Shown here: piece after piece, positions 823 through 49,303 of the stretch | Layout of the letters: every line of letters begins with the position of its first letter | Numbering within the stretch: position 1 is the stretch's first letter | NCBI GenBank assembly: GCA_007376385.1 | Contig: VMGC01000004.1 | Span: forward strand, 32,001 to 96,000 | Source: Parcubacteria group bacterium Gr01-1014_8 | Lineage (GTDB): Bacteria > Patescibacteriota > Minisyncoccia > Phycocordibacterales > UBA2100 | Length of the DNA: 64,000 nt | Reading direction: 5' to 3' | Position numbers and translations under genes: made by a program | Notes under the pieces: generated by a model | What the model was told of the DNA's origin: nothing | What the model saw: the letters and a program-made list of their open reading frames with translations, nothing else | Database searches by the model: none

Positions 823-1170
823 TTAACCAAATACTAACACCTTGTCCGAACTCTCGACCATATTGAGTAAGTCGGACATGGTGGAAATAGGACACATGGC
901 GGTCTCTTTTTTGCCGCGAATTTCCAAGCAAGTACCGCATGCAAAGATTGTTCCTTTCAGTTCTTTATATTCTGCAATTCTCTTTGAAATATCAAAATGT
1001 TCGCCATCAGGAATAGAATCCAATTCCGAACCCTCATTCATCAAGAAAATCTCAACGTGGTGATTAGCTTTGAGTGCGGCGATACCGAGGCGGAACGTGT
1101 TCCATACGTGTTCGGGTTTATTGGATTGTAGGATGATGCCGAGCTTCATAGAGAGTATCTTCGTATCCAT
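823..1170 (-). CDS. DsrE/DsrF-like family small protein
   Basis: 115 aa; length and pattern (lone Cys in GTIFACGTC, alpha/beta layout) resemble the DsrE/YchN fold. Weak assignment. Confidence 0.45.
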   Translation of the reverse strand: MDTKILSMKLGIILQSNKPEHVWNTFRLGIAALKANHHVEIFLMNEGSELDSIPDGEHFDISKRIAEYKELKGTIFACGTCLEIRGKKETAMCPISTMSDLLNMVESSDKVLVFG

Positions 1171-1186
1171 TGATATAATACTTCAT

Positions 1187-2740
1187 ATGCGCTATTTCCT
1201 CTACGCCCGCAAAAGTACGGATGTCGAAGACAAACAGGTGATGTCCATCGAAGGACAGCTCGTTGAACTGCGGGCATTGGCTAAACGTGATGGATTAGAA
1301 ATTGCAGAAGAATTCATTGAAAAGCGAAGCGCGAAGATTCCAGGCCGCCCTGTATTTGAGGACATGTTAAAGCGGATCGAGAAAGACGAAGCGCACGGAA
1401 TTATCTGCTGGAAAATTGATCGTCTTTCACGCAATCCGGTTGATAGCGGGAGAATTAGTTGGCTACTTCAACAGAACATAATCCAGAAGATCGTAACGCA
1501 TGACAAGATATATCTTCCTCACGACAACGTACTCCTCATGTCTGTGGAATTCGGCATGGCGAATCAGTACATCCGAGACTTGAGTGTCAACGTGAAGCGC
1601 GGCCTCCGGCAAAAGGCACGACAAGGCGTATATCCAAGTACCGCGCCCTTGGGCTACCGCAACGACCCGTACACCAAGACCATCGTCGTGGATCGGCGCA
1701 AAGCGCCGCTCGTGCGTAAGGCATTTGAACTCTACGCAAAGAACGGCTCGCGGCTCGAAGACATTGCGCAGTTTCTTTTCGAGCACGGCATCAAGACGGG
1801 AGCGACGCGCGGATGGAGCAAGGGCGGCGGCAGGCCGCTCAAAAAAGACCAGATAACATTCCTGCTCTCTAATCCGTTTTACTTCGGCCACTTCGCCTAC
1901 AGCGGCGAGATGTACGAGGGCACGCATACGCCCATCGTGAGCAAGGAGCTTTTTGACGCGGTGCAAAAAGTCCTCGCGCTTCGCAGTCGTGCGCACCACA
2001 AAGTGGCGAACGAGCCGCAAGCGTATTGCGGCCTTTTGCATTGTGGCGAGTGCGGCTTTTCCATCACCGCCGAGGAGAAATCGAAGCGACAGAAGAACGG
2101 CAACGTACATCGCTACATTTACTATCGCTGTACGAAAAAGAAAGCCGCCGTTCATTGCTCACAGCCGTATGTGCGGGAAGAAGCGCTCGACTCGCAACTC
2201 TCCGGCTTGCTCGCAAAGTTTGTCATGCCCGCGCATTGGGCGAAGGAATTAGACGCAATGGCCGAGCGAGATGCGGCAAGCGCCTCTCAAACCACGGCGG
2301 CGTCCGTCCAAGCGATGCGGGCAAAGATTGCCGAGTTAGACGGCAAAATCGCCCGCATCACCGACCTCTTTGTCGAACAGGATATCGAGCGCGGCGACTA
2401 TCTCGAAAGGAAGCGCGCACTTATGTCCGAAAAGAAGTCGGTGCAGGAGCGAATCCTCCTGCTTGAACGGGACGCCGCCGTGTGGCTCGAACCGATGCAG
2501 AAGTGGATACAAGAGGCGCAAATGCTTGAAGAAATTGCGAAATCCAAAGACTACCCCTCCAAAAAATCCTCCCTCCAAAAAATCTTCGGCTCGAACCTCA
2601 CTCTCCACGCGCGCGAAGCGCGCGGCGTGCCGCAAAATCAGTGGTTTTCTTTGCTCACTGCCAAAGAAAACCACTCCGAAAATAACCTCGTTCCGATACT
2701 TGTGACCTCACGGGGAATCGAACCCCGGTTCCATCCTTGA
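1187..2740 (+). CDS. Large serine recombinase (resolvase/invertase N-terminal domain plus recombinase and zinc-ribbon domains)
   Basis: N-terminal YARKSTDVEDKQ..SIEGQ catalytic-serine motif. Central recombinase domain followed by a Cys cluster (CGLLHCGECG...CTKK..HC) and a C-terminal coiled coil. The start is taken at the internal ATG 1187; the ORF track begins at a TTG at 1070 that overlaps the upstream gene. The 3' end overlaps the tRNA-Glu gene. Confidence 0.8.
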   Translation: MRYFLYARKSTDVEDKQVMSIEGQLVELRALAKRDGLEIAEEFIEKRSAKIPGRPVFEDMLKRIEKDEAHGIICWKIDRLSRNPVDSGRISWLLQQNIIQKIVTHDKIYLPHDNVLLMSVEFGMANQYIRDLSVNVKRGLRQKARQGVYPSTAPLGYRNDPYTKTIVVDRRKAPLVRKAFELYAKNGSRLEDIAQFLFEHGIKTGATRGWSKGGGRPLKKDQITFLLSNPFYFGHFAYSGEMYEGTHTPIVSKELFDAVQKVLALRSRAHHKVANEPQAYCGLLHCGECGFSITAEEKSKRQKNGNVHRYIYYRCTKKKAAVHCSQPYVREEALDSQLSGLLAKFVMPAHWAKELDAMAERDAASASQTTAASVQAMRAKIAELDGKIARITDLFVEQDIERGDYLERKRALMSEKKSVQERILLLERDAAVWLEPMQKWIQEAQMLEEIAKSKDYPSKKSSLQKIFGSNLTLHAREARGVPQNQWFSLLTAKENHSENNLVPILVTSRGIEPRFHP

Positions 2741-7279: not shown

Positions 7280-8170
7280 ATGCGTCCGGCTTTTGTCGTT
7301 GAGTTTGCAACTCCAAAAAAATATCAGCTGAGAGGGTTGTGGTTTGGTCCAAGAAAACCGAAGTGTGCCATCGTGTGGATACATGGTCTCGGTGGTTCAG
7401 CGTTCAGTATGGGCTCGGTTGTTGAGAAATTAGTTAACAAAGACACGGCAGTTCTCACTTTTAATAACCGCGGATTTGAACGGGTTGCTGAAATAAAAAG
7501 AAAAATCGGCAAGAAAACAACATGGACGCGAGCGGGAGCCGCGCACGAGGTTTTTACGGATTGCCTCGATGATGTGCAAGGGGCCGTGAATGTTGCACGA
7601 AAGAGCGGCGCAAAAAATATCTATGTAGGCGGGCAATCTACAGGCTGCCAAAAATCAATCTATTGGGCGAGTACGGCAAAAGGCGGACAACGAATAAAGG
7701 GAATAATTCTCCTTGCACCAGTATCTGACTATGCCGGTGCGGCAAAGCGGCACGGAAAGAAAAAAATAGAGCGCGGTATCGCGTATGCTCGCCGGTTGAT
7801 CAAACAAGGCCGGAATCACGATTTGCTGCCACCATCTGTATGGTCTGAAGAATTGGATGATGCGCAGCGATTTTTGTCTCTCTATACGCCTGATAGCGTC
7901 GAAGAGATTTTTAGTTATGCGCTTCCCATGAAAGCCCCAAAAGTTCTGAAGTCCGTGAAAGTCCCAATTCTGACGCTGTGGGCGGGAAAAGATGAATATA
8001 CAGACAGGCCAGCGAAAAAAATTGAAGAATGGTTCAAAAAACATGTGAACGGCAACATTCTTACGTTTGCGACCATACAGGGCGCAACGCATGGATTCCG
8101 GAACAAAGAGAAGATAGTTGCACGAATGGTGCAACGATGGATGGCGCACAAGAGCGGGGCCAATTATTAA
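7280..8170 (+). CDS. Alpha/beta-hydrolase fold protein
   Basis: HGLGGS oxyanion-type motif and a GQSTG nucleophile elbow (GxSxG). Start taken at the ATG at 7280 after the ahcY stop. Confidence 0.65.
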   Translation: MRPAFVVEFATPKKYQLRGLWFGPRKPKCAIVWIHGLGGSAFSMGSVVEKLVNKDTAVLTFNNRGFERVAEIKRKIGKKTTWTRAGAAHEVFTDCLDDVQGAVNVARKSGAKNIYVGGQSTGCQKSIYWASTAKGGQRIKGIILLAPVSDYAGAAKRHGKKKIERGIAYARRLIKQGRNHDLLPPSVWSEELDDAQRFLSLYTPDSVEEIFSYALPMKAPKVLKSVKVPILTLWAGKDEYTDRPAKKIEEWFKKHVNGNILTFATIQGATHGFRNKEKIVARMVQRWMAHKSGANY

Positions 8171-8175
8171 TTGCT

Positions 8176-8544
8176 ATGAGTGAAATAGGTGAAAAGAACG
8201 GTGATAAGAACAATGATAAGAACGTTGACAAAGGGCCTGAAGATATCAAGGAAAGTTCACTCGTCGAGATTTTTATAGATGGCAAGGATGAAACTGGCGG
8301 AAAGCAGCCTTCCTTTGTGTACGGAATTGTGACAAACACGGCGGATAAAACACTAGAGGGTCGGCCTATCAGGGTCTGGGTTGCAGGACACAAAAGCAAA
8401 GATTACGCGTGCGCTCCATCAAGTATCAGACCGTGCCTGCCCGCGCGAAGGCGCATTGTTATCGATATGCTCCGACTGCGGCTTTCTGCAGAACCTAATG
8501 AATATGTACAGCAACTCTTAGATAGAGCTGAGGCACGAATGTGA
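8176..8544 (+). CDS. Hypothetical small acidic protein
   Basis: ORF starting at MSEIGEKNGDK immediately after the hydrolase stop. Low-complexity Lys/Asp-rich N-terminus. Confidence 0.35.
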   Translation: MSEIGEKNGDKNNDKNVDKGPEDIKESSLVEIFIDGKDETGGKQPSFVYGIVTNTADKTLEGRPIRVWVAGHKSKDYACAPSSIRPCLPARRRIVIDMLRLRLSAEPNEYVQQLLDRAEARM

Positions 8545-8560
8545 GTCTCTACAAGGCATG

Positions 8561-8696
8561 AAAGGTTTCAAACCCCTGGGCTAGCCCAGGACCCTCGCGA
8601 AAGAGCAGCGCTCTTTCGCGAACTTCCGCGGCCTGTCTGCGTGCATCGCACAGGCAGACAAGCCGCAGGGTTTTAAACCTTTGCTGTCTGCGTCGC
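8561..8696. repeat. Nested palindromic structured element (possible ncRNA or regulatory/terminator module)
   Basis: Outer imperfect inverted repeat AAAGGTTTCAAACCCCTG (8561-8578) ... CAGGGTTTTAAACCTTT (8666-8682). Inner perfect palindromes CCTGGGCTAGCCCAGG (8575-8590) and CGCGAAAGAG-cagc-CTCTTTCGCG (8596-8620). A further hairpin CTGTCTGCGTG...CACAGGCAGACAAG (8633-8662), plus a repeated CTGTCTGCGT at 8684-8693. Confidence 0.4.
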
Positions 8697-8774: not shown

Positions 8775-9602
8775 ATGGCCATGGAATCGGCAGTGGAGCG
8801 TGCTGGCGAAGCGGCGGGCGCAGCTCACCTGCCTGCCGAAGCCTCGGCGCAGGCAGGCGAAACAGGTATTCACGTCGCTCTTGCCGCTGAACGGCTTGGC
8901 CACTTTCTCGGCATTCCGATAACGAATACGCTTGTTACAAGCCTTGCTGCGATGGGTATTCTCGTCATTCTATCATTTGTGATGCGAGGCCGTTTAAAAC
9001 TCATTCCTGGTAAATTCCAGACATTGCTCGAATACGCGTTCGAATTTGTGTACGACTACGTCGCCGAAACTCTTGAGAGCACCGAAATGGCGAGAAAATT
9101 CTTCCCGCTCCTTATGACAATATTCCTTTTCGTATTTACCGCAAATATTCTTGAATTTATCCCGGGCGTCGGCAGTCTCACGTTTGACCATCACCCGCTT
9201 TTCCGTGGCGCGAATACTGACCTCACAACCCCGCTTGTGCTCGCGTTGGTGTCTTTTTTCGTCATCGAGATAACCGGAATCTTGACGATTGGCATCTGGA
9301 AATACGGAAGTAAGTTCCTTCAGAATCCGCTTACAAATCCAGTCGGATTTGCGGTCGGGCTCATTGAGCTCATCGGCGAACTGGTGAGAGTCGTCTCGCT
9401 ATCGTTCCGGCTTTTCGGCAACATATTTGCCGGTGCGGTTGTTATCAGTGTCGCGACTTATTTCGCGCCGTATGGAGTTCCGGTATTGTTGATGCTGTTC
9501 GAGATATTCATCGGCTTTTTGCAGGCAGCCGTATTTGCGCTTCTCACGCTCTTTTTCATCAAACTCGCTATCGAGGAACCGCACCGCGAAGAAGCGCACT
9601 AA
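8775..9602 (+). CDS. atpB: F0F1 ATP synthase subunit a
   Basis: Multi-TM protein with the conserved SLSFRLFGNIFAG motif carrying the essential Arg. Confidence 0.9.
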   Translation: MAMESAVERAGEAAGAAHLPAEASAQAGETGIHVALAAERLGHFLGIPITNTLVTSLAAMGILVILSFVMRGRLKLIPGKFQTLLEYAFEFVYDYVAETLESTEMARKFFPLLMTIFLFVFTANILEFIPGVGSLTFDHHPLFRGANTDLTTPLVLALVSFFVIEITGILTIGIWKYGSKFLQNPLTNPVGFAVGLIELIGELVRVVSLSFRLFGNIFAGAVVISVATYFAPYGVPVLLMLFEIFIGFLQAAVFALLTLFFIKLAIEEPHREEAH

Positions 9603-41043: not shown

Positions 41044-41127
41044 ATGAAGAGATACGATCATCGCAAAATTGAGAAAAAATGGGCCTCCTTCGCTAAGGCT
41101 ACGGACGGGCAAACAGCAGAAGTATGA
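41044..41127 (+). other. Upstream ORF (27 aa) mimicking the LeuRS N-terminus, stop overlapping the leuS ATG (ATGA)
   Basis: Encodes MKRYDHRKIEKKW..., versus LeuRS MKSYDHKRIERKW... Its ATG sits in the loop of a 10-bp perfect hairpin (41029-41058). Confidence 0.3.
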
Positions 41128-44081
41128 AAAGTTACGATCATAAACGTATAGAACGAAAGTGGCAGGCACGCTGGAAGAAATCGAAGCTGTACAAGACTGC
41201 CGATACGGTAAAAGGTAAGAAAAATTATTATTTGCTAACTGAATTTCCGTATCCGTCTGGCAATTTGCACGTCGGACACTGGTACGCTTTTTCTGTACCG
41301 GACATTTTAGCAAGAGCGCTCCGCATGCAAGGCAAGAATGTGATGTATCCGTTCGGCTTTGATGCATTCGGATTGCCTGCGGAAAACGCAGCCATAAAAA
41401 ATAAGTTGAATCCTCGAAAATGGACCCTCGGCAACATCAAGTACATGAAAAAACAGATAACCTCGATGGGTGCATCGTTTGATTGGTCTCGAGAACTCGC
41501 TACGTGCGATCCTGAATACTACAAGTGGACGCAGTGGCAGTTTTTGCAATTTTTTAAGGCAGGACTCGCATATCGAAAAGAGACAGCAGTCAATTGGTGC
41601 CCTTCGTGCAAGACAGTGCTTGCGAACGAGCAGGTAGTGGATGGAAAATGCGAACGATGCGGAACGGAAGTGATTCAGAAGCAAATGCTTCAATGGAACT
41701 TAAAAATCACCGACTATGCGGACCGTCTTATTGACGATTTGAGCACGCTGGATTGGCCTGAACAGATAAAGGAATCGCAGAAAAATTGGATAGGACGTTC
41801 TGAAGGCGCCGAGATAGATTTCAGGCTCACAGGAAATGTAGGCGATGACTCACGGTATCTGATCCTCCACGGCAGAGAAGGGAAGCCCACGAGCGTCTTT
41901 ATTCCATGGCTCAAAGAAGAACTGGAAAAAGCTGGACATGAAGTGGAAGTGCCACAGCTTCCCAACACGAATGAACCGAATGCATATGAACAGGCAGAAT
42001 ACATCCTCAAGAACTGCACCGTAGATGAAAAAACAGTTGTGATAGGCCACTCGATAGGAGGAGTTACAGCGCTGCGTCTCTTGGAGAAGGGCGCAAAGGT
42101 TAGGCGCGTTATATTGGTCGCGACACCGTACTCAGGAAGATTTTTGGATGGTAAGAAACGGCCGAGCGTCACAGATTCCGTGAAGAAGGGGTTCGATTTC
42201 GAGACGATACGGAACAATACAAAGAGCATCATTGTTATGCCGGATGTAAAAGATGACAGAGTTCCATTTTCCGACGCCGAGAGCTATGCGCAGAAACTGG
42301 CCGGGATGCTGGTCCATGGCAGGGGAGAGGAGAAGCATTTTATGGGTAAGATAGAGCCGGATGTATTGATGTGCCTTTGCCCCACTATCCGCGTTTTTAC
42401 GACGCGAGCCGACACGCTTTTCGGGGCGACCTACATGGTCTTGTCCCCGGAACATCCATGGGTACGGTTAGCGATAGATGATGATCACAAAGTTTTAGAA
42501 AATAAGGATGAGGTAAAGGAATACGTCACAGCGGCGAATAAAAAAACTGAGCTGGAACGCCTCACGGAACAAAAAGAAAAGACCGGGGTGAGGCTGAAAG
42601 GCGTTGAGGGAGTAAACCCCGCTACGGGCGAGAAGATACCGATATTCGTAGCAGACTACGTGCTTGCGCACTACGGGACAGGGGCCATCATGGCGGTCCC
42701 GGCGCACGATGAGCGCGACTTTGCATTTGCCAAGAAATTTGAGCTGCCGATACGAGATGTGATCTCTACTGGAAAGATGGAATCCGGCGTGTTCGCAGGA
42801 GAAGGAGTGTTGGTGAATTCCGGCGCGTTCAATGGGCTAAAAAGTATCGAGGCTAAGAGCACGCTCACCGATAAATTTGGCCGCAGTAAAATCACGTACA
42901 AACTCCGCGATTGGATAGTTTCGCGCCAGCGTTACTGGGGAGTTCCAATACCCATCGTCCACTGCGAAAGGTGTGGAGACGTCGCTATTCCTGATCCACA
43001 GCTTCCCGTTACATTGCCGGAAATCAAAGATTATTTGCCAACCGGAGACGGAAAATCGCCTCTCGCAAAAGCCAAAAAGTGGGTCAAAGTGAAATGTCCG
43101 CAGTGCAAAGGGACGGCAGAAAGAGAAACAGATACTCTCGATACGTTCGTCGATTCATCCTGGTACTTTTTGCGGTACGCGGACACAATAAACAAAAAAA
43201 AGTTTGCCGATATGAAAAAGATGGATGCATGGATGCCGGTAGATCTCTATTCCGGAGGAGCAGAACACACAACGATGCACCTCCTCTATTCTCGCTTCTG
43301 GCAGAAGGCGCTCTACGATCTAAAGCTCGTTAAGGACAGCGAGCCGTACACGCGAAGGATGAATCGTTCCATCATTCTTGGTCCAGACGGGCAAAAGATG
43401 TCGAAATCCCGAGGCAACGTGATAGACCCGGATGCTGTTGTCGCGAAACTCGGCGCAGACACCGTGCGTATGTACCTTGCCTTCATAGGTCCGTATAATG
43501 AGGTTTCGAACTATCCGTGGAATCCGGATGGTGTGGTAGGTATTCGCCGTTTTCTCGAGCGTGTTTGGCGCCTCCGCGACCGACTTACGATATCGGTCAA
43601 GAAAAGTGACGGACATACGATATCGAACATCGAACGGATGCTGCATGTAACGATTAAAAAGGTGGGGGACGATATCACTGCCCTGAAATTCAATACTGCC
43701 ATCGCGCAGATGATGTCGTTTATGAACGAAGCAGAGAGTAAAGGGATCACAAAGGCGCAATACGAGACACTGCTTCGGCTTCTTGCCCCGTTCGCTCCTC
43801 ATATTGCAGACGAACTTTGGAGCATGATGGGACACAAGAAGTCGGTTCATATTGAAAAATGGCCCGCATTCGATCCGCATAAACTCGCGTCGTCGTCGTT
43901 TACAATTGCGGTACAAGTGAATGGCAAGACACGAACTCAAATCACCATACCTGCTGCAGTGAAGGAAGACGCCGTGAAGGAACAGGCTGAAACAGCTGCA
44001 GGAAAATGGTTGGAGGGAAAGGCTATAAAAAAGATCATCTACGTGCCCGGCCGCATCGTCAACATCGTCGCGGGCGAATAG
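41124..44081 (+). CDS. leuS: Leucyl-tRNA synthetase with inserted YdeN/RBBP9-like alpha/beta-hydrolase domain
   Basis: HIGH motif (HVGHWY) and KMSKS; CP1 editing motifs TTRADTLFGATY and GTGAIMAVPAHDERD. A roughly 185-aa insertion at aa 236-420 has YLILHG...GHSIGG... Confidence 0.9.
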   Translation: MKSYDHKRIERKWQARWKKSKLYKTADTVKGKKNYYLLTEFPYPSGNLHVGHWYAFSVPDILARALRMQGKNVMYPFGFDAFGLPAENAAIKNKLNPRKWTLGNIKYMKKQITSMGASFDWSRELATCDPEYYKWTQWQFLQFFKAGLAYRKETAVNWCPSCKTVLANEQVVDGKCERCGTEVIQKQMLQWNLKITDYADRLIDDLSTLDWPEQIKESQKNWIGRSEGAEIDFRLTGNVGDDSRYLILHGREGKPTSVFIPWLKEELEKAGHEVEVPQLPNTNEPNAYEQAEYILKNCTVDEKTVVIGHSIGGVTALRLLEKGAKVRRVILVATPYSGRFLDGKKRPSVTDSVKKGFDFETIRNNTKSIIVMPDVKDDRVPFSDAESYAQKLAGMLVHGRGEEKHFMGKIEPDVLMCLCPTIRVFTTRADTLFGATYMVLSPEHPWVRLAIDDDHKVLENKDEVKEYVTAANKKTELERLTEQKEKTGVRLKGVEGVNPATGEKIPIFVADYVLAHYGTGAIMAVPAHDERDFAFAKKFELPIRDVISTGKMESGVFAGEGVLVNSGAFNGLKSIEAKSTLTDKFGRSKITYKLRDWIVSRQRYWGVPIPIVHCERCGDVAIPDPQLPVTLPEIKDYLPTGDGKSPLAKAKKWVKVKCPQCKGTAERETDTLDTFVDSSWYFLRYADTINKKKFADMKKMDAWMPVDLYSGGAEHTTMHLLYSRFWQKALYDLKLVKDSEPYTRRMNRSIILGPDGQKMSKSRGNVIDPDAVVAKLGADTVRMYLAFIGPYNEVSNYPWNPDGVVGIRRFLERVWRLRDRLTISVKKSDGHTISNIERMLHVTIKKVGDDITALKFNTAIAQMMSFMNEAESKGITKAQYETLLRLLAPFAPHIADELWSMMGHKKSVHIEKWPAFDPHKLASSSFTIAVQVNGKTRTQITIPAAVKEDAVKEQAETAAGKWLEGKAIKKIIYVPGRIVNIVAGE

Positions 44082-46636: not shown

Positions 46637-47887
46637 ATGTTATTTCAAAGAGAGGGTCAGCCGAGTGGAACTGTACGCTTCGGAACGGCATTCGCCATCG
46701 CACTTGTGGTGGGTGCGCTCGGCTTCACCGGGGGTATTTTTGCAGGTAATCGTACCTATGCGAATGGACCCCTGCTCGGCGACTCTCCGCCAGAAGGGGT
46801 CGACATGACCCCCGTATGGAAAGCGTGGCGCATCATTGATGAAAAATTCGTTCCCGCAGCCGTTGCTACCACGAGCATAGCTGCAGCATCAACAACCGAT
46901 GCGGAGCAAAGACGAGTCTGGGGCATGATCGAAGGACTGGCCAATTCATTGGACGATCCCTACACATATTTCATGCCGCCCGCAGAGCAAAAGCAATTTT
47001 CAGAGGACATGACTGGCGCATTCGAAGGAGTAGGGATGGAAATAGCCGTTCGAGACGAAGTGCTCGTTATCGTCTCGCCCCTTAAAGGCACGCCTGCTGA
47101 ACGGGCAGGACTTCGAGCAGGAGACAAGATATTGAAAATAGACGGCGATGACACGCGTGGCGTAGATATTACGTCTGCAGTCCAGCGCATCCGCGGACCA
47201 AAGGGAAGTACCGTTACTTTCTCTATATTTAGAGATGGATGGTCCGAACCCAAGGATGTACAAGTCGTACGCGACGTCATCAACGTCCCGATCGTCACGA
47301 CGGAAATAAAAGAGGGAGTCTTCGTTATTGAGGTGGCAAGCTTTACGGCAAATTCGCCAGGACTATTTCGAAATGCTCTTCGTGAATTTGTGGATTCAGG
47401 CACGTCGAGACTCATCATTGACCTTCGTGGAAATCCGGGAGGATATCTGGATGCCGCCGTGGACATGGCAAGTTGGTTCCTTCCTTCTGGAAAAATCGTG
47501 GTTGTGGAAGATTATGCTGGGCACGAGACCAATATAACGCATCGCTCGCGCGGCTATAACGTATTCAACGATAATTTGCGCATGGTCATTCTCGTTGATA
47601 AAGGCTCTGCATCCGCCTCTGAAATTCTCGCACTCGCGCTTAATAGCCACGGCAAGGCTCGGCTCATCGGTTCTCCTACCTTCGGCAAAGGTTCAGTCCA
47701 GGAGCTGATAGACATAACGCCTGATACGGGTTTGAAGCTCACGGTCGCGAGGTGGCTCGGGCCTAACGGAGAGCATATACCGCACTCTGGCATCATTCCC
47801 GACATTCAAGTTGAAAGAACTGAAGACGATATTAAAAGCGACAAGGACCCGCAGATTGATGCGGCTATCAAGGCAGTCAATGAGTAG
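46637..47887 (+). CDS. C-terminal processing peptidase (S41 family, tail-specific protease)
   Basis: PDZ domain plus S41 catalytic region with the GNPGGYL motif. N-terminal TM anchor. Confidence 0.85.
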   Translation: MLFQREGQPSGTVRFGTAFAIALVVGALGFTGGIFAGNRTYANGPLLGDSPPEGVDMTPVWKAWRIIDEKFVPAAVATTSIAAASTTDAEQRRVWGMIEGLANSLDDPYTYFMPPAEQKQFSEDMTGAFEGVGMEIAVRDEVLVIVSPLKGTPAERAGLRAGDKILKIDGDDTRGVDITSAVQRIRGPKGSTVTFSIFRDGWSEPKDVQVVRDVINVPIVTTEIKEGVFVIEVASFTANSPGLFRNALREFVDSGTSRLIIDLRGNPGGYLDAAVDMASWFLPSGKIVVVEDYAGHETNITHRSRGYNVFNDNLRMVILVDKGSASASEILALALNSHGKARLIGSPTFGKGSVQELIDITPDTGLKLTVARWLGPNGEHIPHSGIIPDIQVERTEDDIKSDKDPQIDAAIKAVNE

Positions 47888-47893
47888 CGTATG

Positions 47894-48029
47894 CCCGCAC
47901 ACCAATGGTGGCATAATGTTTTTGTTGCAAATATACTATCTGACATGTATCCAGATTCGGAAACTCGTACTGCGACTACGGATAATATTCTGAAAACACG
48001 TGGCAACCATGCCACCATTGGTGTGCGGG
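47894..48029. mobile_element. MITE-like element: 21-bp perfect terminal inverted repeats flanking a 94-nt core
   Basis: CCCGCACACCAATGGTGGCAT (47894-47914) is the exact reverse complement of ATGCCACCATTGGTGTGCGGG (48009-48029). It is flanked by (G)TATG on both sides; the right copy supplies the rplI ATG. Confidence 0.55.
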
Positions 48030-48030
48030 T

Positions 48031-48480
48031 ATGAAGGTCATCATGCTTCGTGATGTCGCAGGTGTGGGACAAAAGGGAACCATAGCGCGCGTATCGGATG
48101 GCTATGCCATGAATTTTCTTATTCCTCAAAAATTTGCAGAAATGGCTACAGAAGAGAAGGTCAATGAGACGCATAAACGAAAAGCCGAAGCTGAAGCCAT
48201 GGTGGTGAAGCAGATGGCAGAATGGAAGGAGCAAGCAACACGGCTTGCTAATGCATCAGTGACAGTTCGCATGGAGGCAAATGAAAAGGGACAGCTGTAT
48301 AGTCAGATACCTCACGCCAAAATTCTTGAACGCATATCGAAGGAGCTCGGCATCAACGTTAAGGAGGAATGCCTGGTCGATGTAAGGCCGATAAAATCAC
48401 TCGGCCGTACTGAAATAGACCTTACGCTGGGCGGGAAACGGATCCCATTCACTGTTTTTGTGGAGAGAAAAGAGGATTAA
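48031..48480 (+). CDS. rplI: 50S ribosomal protein L9
   Basis: N-terminal [30 protein letters not shown] matches the L9 N-domain. Confidence 0.9.
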
Positions 48481-49163: not shown

Positions 49164-49303
49164 GAAACATAACGGGGGCAACTGTGCTTCGTACCATAAT
49201 GGTGCCGGTCGGCACCATTATGGTACGCATATAAATCAAAAGGAGACAGAAAATCCCCGAAACAAACACGACAGCTGGTATATCATGGGATATACTTATC
49301 GTC

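Follow-up and report, generated by a model that had tools for sequence, protein, structure and literature searches.

Prokaryotic MITEs are elements of less than 500 bp that end in inverted repeats of 4-30 bp and are bordered by direct repeats. They are AT-richer than their hosts, reside between genes, form stable RNA folds, and can occur in as few as one copy per genome (PMC10969869). Similarly, the Correia elements of Neisseria (CREE/NEMIS) measure 100-155 bp, carry terminal inverted repeats of ~26 bp, are non-coding, sit just 5' of genes, and give rise to transcripts that are long hairpins (PMC2649163; PMC10969869). Correia elements can also provide promoters, and their hairpin RNA can be cleaved by RNase III (PMC2649163). 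For CPR/Patescibacteria, whose genomes are reduced, descriptions of small mobile repeats seem to be nearly lacking, and a full-text literature search that combined these two subjects retrieved a single paper, which is unrelated.

The locus described here lies in a 64-kb stretch of DNA from an uncultured Kaiserbacteria-like member of the Parcubacteria (called the window below, which always means the whole of the stretch analyzed). The L9 protein encoded in this DNA is identical to one recorded for Parcubacteria group bacterium Gr01-1014_8. At the junction between a ctpA-like gene and rplI, a preliminary description of this DNA had reported a 136-nt inverted-repeat element and had interpreted it as MITE-like. 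The observation is confirmed, and the interpretation is partly supported. The best explanation, to which we assign a probability of about 0.68, is that a non-autonomous MITE-like transposon remnant rests on the rplI start, with production of ribosomal protein L9 likely kept up by a relay through a short open reading frame (ORF). Most likely, the host merely tolerates a selfish insertion here, and the element did not evolve as a regulator.

The element occupies positions 47894-48029 and is composed of a 21-nt arm, a 94-nt core, and a second 21-nt arm (Table 1). As the preliminary description had claimed, the arms are exact reverse complements (21/21 nt) that surround an AT-richer core, with GC contents of 62% for the arms and 38% for the core compared to 49% for the window. 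Pairing between the arms stretches to 24 nt (47891-47914 with 48009-48032) with one G:T pair included. Both flanks read TATG, or GTATG when the G that closes the right arm is counted in, and the earlier reading of these flanks as a target-site duplication of 4-5 bp is supported for a length of 4 bp. The left ATG is located 3 nt downstream of the ctpA stop codon TAG (47885-47887), and the right arm terminates 1 nt 5' of the rplI ATG (48031), again as first described. The arms constitute the longest perfect inverted repeat of the window. When the window was shuffled 100 times, no 21-mer came within 3 mismatches of an arm, and shuffled windows held 0-4 inverted repeats of at least 11 nt each. A fold check, which had been proposed with the preliminary description, found the predicted RNA structure of the element region to be very stable (-65.4 kcal/mol, z = -5.9). 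The window contains three structural outliers, this fold among them, and no T-run is present 3' of the stem.

Table 1. Positions of the element, its flanks, and the adjoining genes in the window
Feature	Positions	Strand	Remarks
ctpA-like gene	46637-47887	+	S41 peptidase, PDZ domain; C-terminal processing peptidase
TATG, left copy of putative target-site duplication	47890-47893		its ATG (47891) occupies the former rplI start context
47-codon ORF through element	47891-48034	+	starts at left ATG; TGA 48032-48034 overlaps rplI ATG
Left terminal inverted repeat	47894-47914		CCCGCACACCAATGGTGGCAT
Core	47915-48008		94 nt, 38% GC
-10-like hexamer TATACT	47932-47937	+	7 nt before ATG 47945; weak candidate for an internal leaderless promoter
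Right terminal inverted repeat	48009-48029		ATGCCACCATTGGTGTGCGGG
TATG, right copy	48030-48033		its ATG (48031-48033) is the rplI start codon
rplI (ribosomal protein L9)	48031-48480	+

All other contigs that cover the locus carry the same element sequence, and because these contigs derive from different samples and assemblers, the element is not an assembly artifact. Exact look-ups of CtpA and L9 revealed no empty-site variant within the species; every contig is filled. One low-coverage assembly has a break within the core (position 1 of contig L003 corresponds to window position 47973), which might reflect either the low coverage or the repeat itself. The 47-codon ORF of the element has no Pfam domain and no protein homolog. 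A search with six-frame peptides of the element against 5.8 billion proteins likewise yielded no relatives, although this is a weak negative because the ORF is not called as a gene at this locus either. Rfam provided no family for the element, both when the whole window was searched at the gathering threshold and when this element and its relative described below were searched at E values up to 10, where the sole match was a plant miRNA model, which is a generic long hairpin. A tRNA/tmRNA scan found nothing at the locus. The suggestion that the core could encode a small RNA therefore finds no support, given the lack of an Rfam match and the fact that the core differs between the two members of the family.

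Orthologous ctpA-rplI junctions are informative regarding the origin of this segment. Seven such junctions from Kaiserbacteria-like genomes were compared, and the gene order ctpA-rplI-(rpmA)-... is kept in these relatives. In L004, whose L9 is 74% identical to that of the window, the ctpA stop codon overlaps the rplI ATG (ATGA, 4 nt), and the spacer is 1 nt in L007 (L9 65% identical), 9 nt in L076 (54%), and 7 nt in L080 (51%). The tight junctions in these four genomes indicate that the tight state is ancestral and that 140 nt were gained in the window. An additional gene lies between ctpA and rplI in L077 (50%), and spacers of 133 nt in L009 (60%) and 73 nt in L011 (59%) consist of different hairpin-forming sequences. 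Cutting positions 47894-48033, which comprise the element and one TATG, leaves ...AATGAGTAGCGTATG followed directly by AAGGTC, and the window junction reconstructed in this manner aligns with ...AATGGACAACTATGAAAGTC of L004. As had been anticipated, removal of the element restores a short spacer that matches those of relatives (the overlap in L004 and 1-9 nt in the others). The preliminary description had also proposed that orthologs sharing the sequence, with covariation, would argue for an ancient structured leader; instead, the element is absent from 7/7 junctions, which favors insertion. Overall, the comparison indicates that the ctpA-rplI segment is an insertion and not an ancient leader.

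An inverted-repeat scan of the relatives' DNA uncovered a second element in the L009 genome, at positions 2492-2627 between corA and ctpA. Its length is exactly 136 nt, the same as that of the window element, and it starts with CCCGCACAC and ends with GTGTGCGGG. The CCCGCACAC termini are common to both members. CATG is present on both flanks of the L009 element, and the right ATG is the called ctpA start, but CATG is palindromic and thus duplication and repeat extension are indistinguishable at that site. The L009 arms pair at 20/21 positions, compared to 21/21 for the window arms. When the arms of the two members are aligned without gaps, 16/21 positions are identical, including all of the outer 9 nt, and the 5 differing positions have changed on both arms and still pair, with none broken in the window element. 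The cores are unalignable and have no significant similarity in either orientation. Excision of the L009 element produces GATAAT + 7 nt + ATG at ctpA, a normal promoter arrangement whose -10-to-ATG geometry equals that of the ctpA genes of the window and L076 (TAGAAT + 8-9 nt + ATG); the corA-ctpA spacers in these two, which are 63 nt and 146 nt, respectively, lack the element. The family therefore comprises at least two members, which represent two genomes and two loci, each with an empty-site counterpart and each on a start codon. They constitute a small, previously unseen family, whose shared traits are the CCCGCACAC termini, the 136-bp length, and an apparent 4-bp YATG duplication.

Searches for additional copies and for a parent element were conducted on several scales. 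The ~84 kb of source-genome sequence searched (the window and 10 kb on each side) yielded no additional copy when up to 5 mismatches per arm were allowed, the L009 genome has 1 copy within ~20 kb, and no element copy is present at the loci examined in other relatives. Exact searches with an 18-mer of the window arm gave 25 matches in GTDB species genomes and 30 in JGI metagenomes, and a 16-mer gave 7 matches in IMG/VR, all of which are single-arm chance matches in unrelated taxa; none is accompanied by the second arm or by core similarity. These are weak negatives, because the three collections do not include the source genome and the queries were specific to the window arm. A gapped pattern of the termini had no matches in IMG/VR, and blastn against plasmids and phages yielded chance matches of ~25 nt only. 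Likewise, no parent insertion sequence or transposase with the family ends was found in the GTDB, JGI, IMG/VR, plasmid, and phage scans. Members of the IS1380 family, as tabulated in ISfinder, have ends that begin with CC and duplications of 4-5 bp. These traits would presumably fit the CCCGC... ends and the (G)YATG duplication of the element, and we take them as a lead only; exact scans and the plasmid and phage blastn searches revealed no full-length element or transposase with the ends of the element.

Among 52 gene starts from the window and from L001, L074, and L075, Shine-Dalgarno-like motifs precede only 6, which equals background. In contrast, the motif TAnnnT (often TGnTAnnnT) is located 11-17 nt 5' of the start for 22/52 genes versus a background of 7% (P ~1e-12). 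The absence of Shine-Dalgarno enrichment, together with -10 boxes that abut ATGs, suggests that gene starts in the source genome are largely leaderless or coupled. Thus, the preliminary proposal that the 21-bp stem sequesters a ribosome-binding region does not apply as stated; the stem encloses the start codon itself.

The element would have inserted into the TATG that holds the rplI start codon, and duplication of these 4 bp would have left one ATG still heading rplI. In a ctpA-rplI co-transcript, pairing of the arms is predicted to give a 24-bp stem whose end coincides with the rplI AUG. Ribosomes leaving ctpA would then enter the 47-codon ORF at ATG 47891, 3 nt past the ctpA stop codon, or the ORF might instead be entered at a second in-frame ATG (47945) behind the candidate leaderless promoter. 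Translating ribosomes would melt the stem, halt at the TGA that overlaps the rplI start codon, and reinitiate there. Transcription from the internal candidate promoter might also yield a leaderless RNA without the left arm. Given the absence of Shine-Dalgarno enrichment, L9 synthesis most likely occurs via the short-ORF ribosomes, and we infer that L9 expression is probably kept by this translational relay. L9 and CtpA are dispensable in model bacteria, and so simple tolerance of lowered expression is another way in which the insertion could have persisted.

Several observations bear on this proposed relay. Both members carry an ORF that ends on or just past the host ATG. In the L009 member, the window-type ORF runs into a stop after 4 codons, and a 37-codon ORF inside that element ends 3 nt beyond the ctpA ATG. 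The frame that crosses the right arm differs between the two members, and ~12% of core shuffles leave the relay frame of the window open by chance. The hexamer and spacing found at 47945 are also present at the RNase_T gene (TATACT 49291-49296, ATG 49304). The internal promoter is neither above chance nor conserved; a matrix built from the genome's own -10 boxes gives a moderate match in the window and none in the L009 element, and a conserved internal promoter was therefore rejected.

A more elaborate possibility, which we consider unlikely, is that the family actively seeks start codons. Such an element would land on YATG at the first codon, its duplication would regenerate the ATG, and its own ORF would hand ribosomes to the host AUG through the hairpin; under this reading, the window member possibly also carries its own leaderless promoter. 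If true, an element of this kind could separate a start codon from its promoter or from an upstream cistron while the gene stays active. As the family has two members, their association with start codons could be the result of survivorship in a gene-dense genome.

Other explanations must be weighed against the MITE-like remnant. The element is a long hairpin of two inverted arms and in this sense is REPIN-like, and a 240-aa Y1_Tnp gene with two direct hairpin copies around it is encoded ~24 kb away on the source contig (L075 616-1338). It is nonetheless quite unlikely that a Y1 (IS200/RAYT-type) transposase mobilized the element as a REPIN-like hairpin, with YATG serving as the cleavage or target tetranucleotide rather than being a duplication. 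The Y1_Tnp gene is bordered by hairpins (TTGTGCAAGTCTGACTTGCACAA) that bear no relation to the element arms and are absent from the window, and because the arms differ from these REP hairpins, a link to the resident Y1 transposase was rejected. A small palindrome within the window arm, CACCAATGGTG, is not conserved in L009. Furthermore, the tetranucleotide varies between members (TATG, CATG) yet within each member is the same on the two flanks, which is the pattern of a duplication, and Y1 transposases are not known to make target duplications. A never-mobile hairpin spacer of local origin or under local selection, for example as a terminator, insulator, or RNA-processing site, would be in keeping with the unrelated hairpin spacers present at ctpA-rplI in two other lineages (133 nt in L009, 73 nt in L011) and with the other long intergenic hairpins of the source genome. 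We judge this to be decidedly improbable, since the same termini and the same 136-nt length recur at a different locus of another genome, an exact 4-bp repeat flanks the element, four relatives are essentially without a spacer, and no T-run follows the stem. In addition, the L009 spacer is made of repeats from a family dispersed in that genome, which itself points to colonization by repeats.

Two further explanations assign the segment a regulatory or coding function. Perfect inverted repeats around a short AT-richer segment with -10-like hexamers on both strands are reminiscent of an invertible promoter switch (inverton), which in this case would control rplI, and a large serine recombinase is encoded in the window (1070-2740). 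This scenario seems very improbable, as a single orientation is present in all contigs from different samples and the recombinase gene is 45 kb distant, beside a tRNA gene as is usual for integrases. Moreover, neither empty sites nor a TATG direct repeat at the flanks would be expected for a switch, and L9 is an unlikely target for phase variation. The very stable fold and the open 47-codon frame might alternatively be taken as signs of an ancient structured leader, small RNA gene, or small protein gene of rplI. We give this almost no credence, because the element is missing from every orthologous rplI junction examined (7/7), its peptide has no homolog, Rfam has no match, the frame closes after 4 codons in L009, and the cores are unconserved. 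A conserved cis-regulatory rplI leader is likewise contradicted by the comparative data, given its absence at all seven orthologous junctions.

Various other hairpins and repeats were encountered in the course of the analysis. In the L009 genome (GCA_964373725.1), AAGTATCAAG units arranged in inverted clusters build the ctpA-rplI spacer, and this repeat family occupies three spacers within 20 kb (L078 8413-8443, 9876-9974, and 19134-19255). The 73-nt spacer of L011 (3919-3993) is a 19-bp stem of 7-nt AGCGnnT repeats that begins inside the end of ctpA (z = -5.1). The strongest structural outlier of the window is a multi-stem fold at 8555-8690 (+), between an ORF at 8029-8544 and an atpB-like gene at 8775-9602, where 221 nt fold at -98.4 kcal/mol (z = -6.5). 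This region has no Rfam match and could be a novel RNA or another hairpin repeat. A perfect 18+2+18 palindrome (CGTACCATAATGGTGCCG / CGGCACCATTATGGTACG) with no T-run after it is located at 49190-49227, in a 140-nt spacer 5' of the RNase_T-like gene; the same spacer is 31 nt in L004. A tie between this palindrome and the element via ACCA..ATGGTG was rejected as probably a coincidence, since the L009 member does not share this motif. The Y1 transposase gene (IS200/RAYT-like) lies between grpE and dnaK, ~9 kb past the window end, and the dnaK-dnaJ spacer (L075 3365-3470) holds a 106-nt element whose inverted ends match at 15/16 positions (GTATACCCCGTGAGAT...). The 49190-49227, 8555-8690, dnaK-dnaJ, Y1, and AAGTATCAAG hairpins have no sequence kinship to the element studied here.

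Two additional features of the window are also worth recording. The serine recombinase (Resolvase/Recombinase/Zn-ribbon) is encoded by an ORF that spans 1070-2740 (+) from its first possible start, whereas the called gene is 517 aa (1187-2740). Its end overlaps tRNA-Glu (2702-2774, -), the only tRNA gene of the window, and this overlap suggests an integrated element. The leucyl-tRNA synthetase gene (L001 3094-6051, equivalent to window 41124-44081) has weak matches to a serine-hydrolase/alpha-beta-hydrolase domain, and these matches are also seen in L078 and L080.

Inverted repeats, an apparent duplication, a second family member, and empty sites together make the locus a clean example of a small mobile repeat in this bacterial group. 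It also shows that hairpin repeats have colonized the gene junctions of these genomes repeatedly and independently. Because both copies sit on start codons in the absence of Shine-Dalgarno enrichment, they also put naturally to the test how leaderless or coupled starts survive behind 140 nt of hairpin. On a practical level, such elements break assemblies and can mislead the calling of gene starts in CPR MAGs.

When compared to known systems, the element agrees with MITEs such as ERIC, RUP, QMITE, MITEAba12, and Chunjie in size, repeats, flanks, AT content, and fold. At 136 bp it is well under 500 bp and has no transposase gene, its lone 47-codon ORF being broken in the L009 member. Its inverted repeats fall within the range of 4-30 bp (21/21 paired in the window, 20/21 in L009), and it is flanked by direct repeats (TATG/TATG in the window; CATG/CATG in L009, where the palindrome makes the assignment ambiguous). 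Empty sites are present in L004, L007, L076, and L080, and the element is intergenic, stably folded, and AT-richer than its surroundings (core 38% versus window 49% GC). The family differs from MITEs generally in that the scans yielded no parent insertion sequence, in being represented by two members in two genomes that are both exactly on a start codon, and in an identical length of 136 bp despite unalignable cores. With REPINs it shares a hairpin of two inverted arms, a size of ~100 nt, an intergenic position, and a Y1-transposase gene in the same genome, but it has flanking direct repeats, its arms are unlike the hairpins of the Y1 gene, and it is not abundant.

The nearest functional analog might be the Correia element of Neisseria, which shares the size class, terminal inverted repeats, lack of coding capacity, and gene-upstream site. 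Correia elements duplicate a TA target and are numerous in each genome. The element of the window is unrelated to them in sequence, has an apparent 4-bp YATG duplication, is present in one copy in ~84 kb, and resides in a CPR host with leaderless-type starts. Identity with Correia/CREE was therefore rejected on the basis of the CCCGCACAC... ends and the YATG duplication. Overall, the element represents a new family within a known class, and the one unusual feature of this family is the position of both known copies on start codons in a leaderless-type host.
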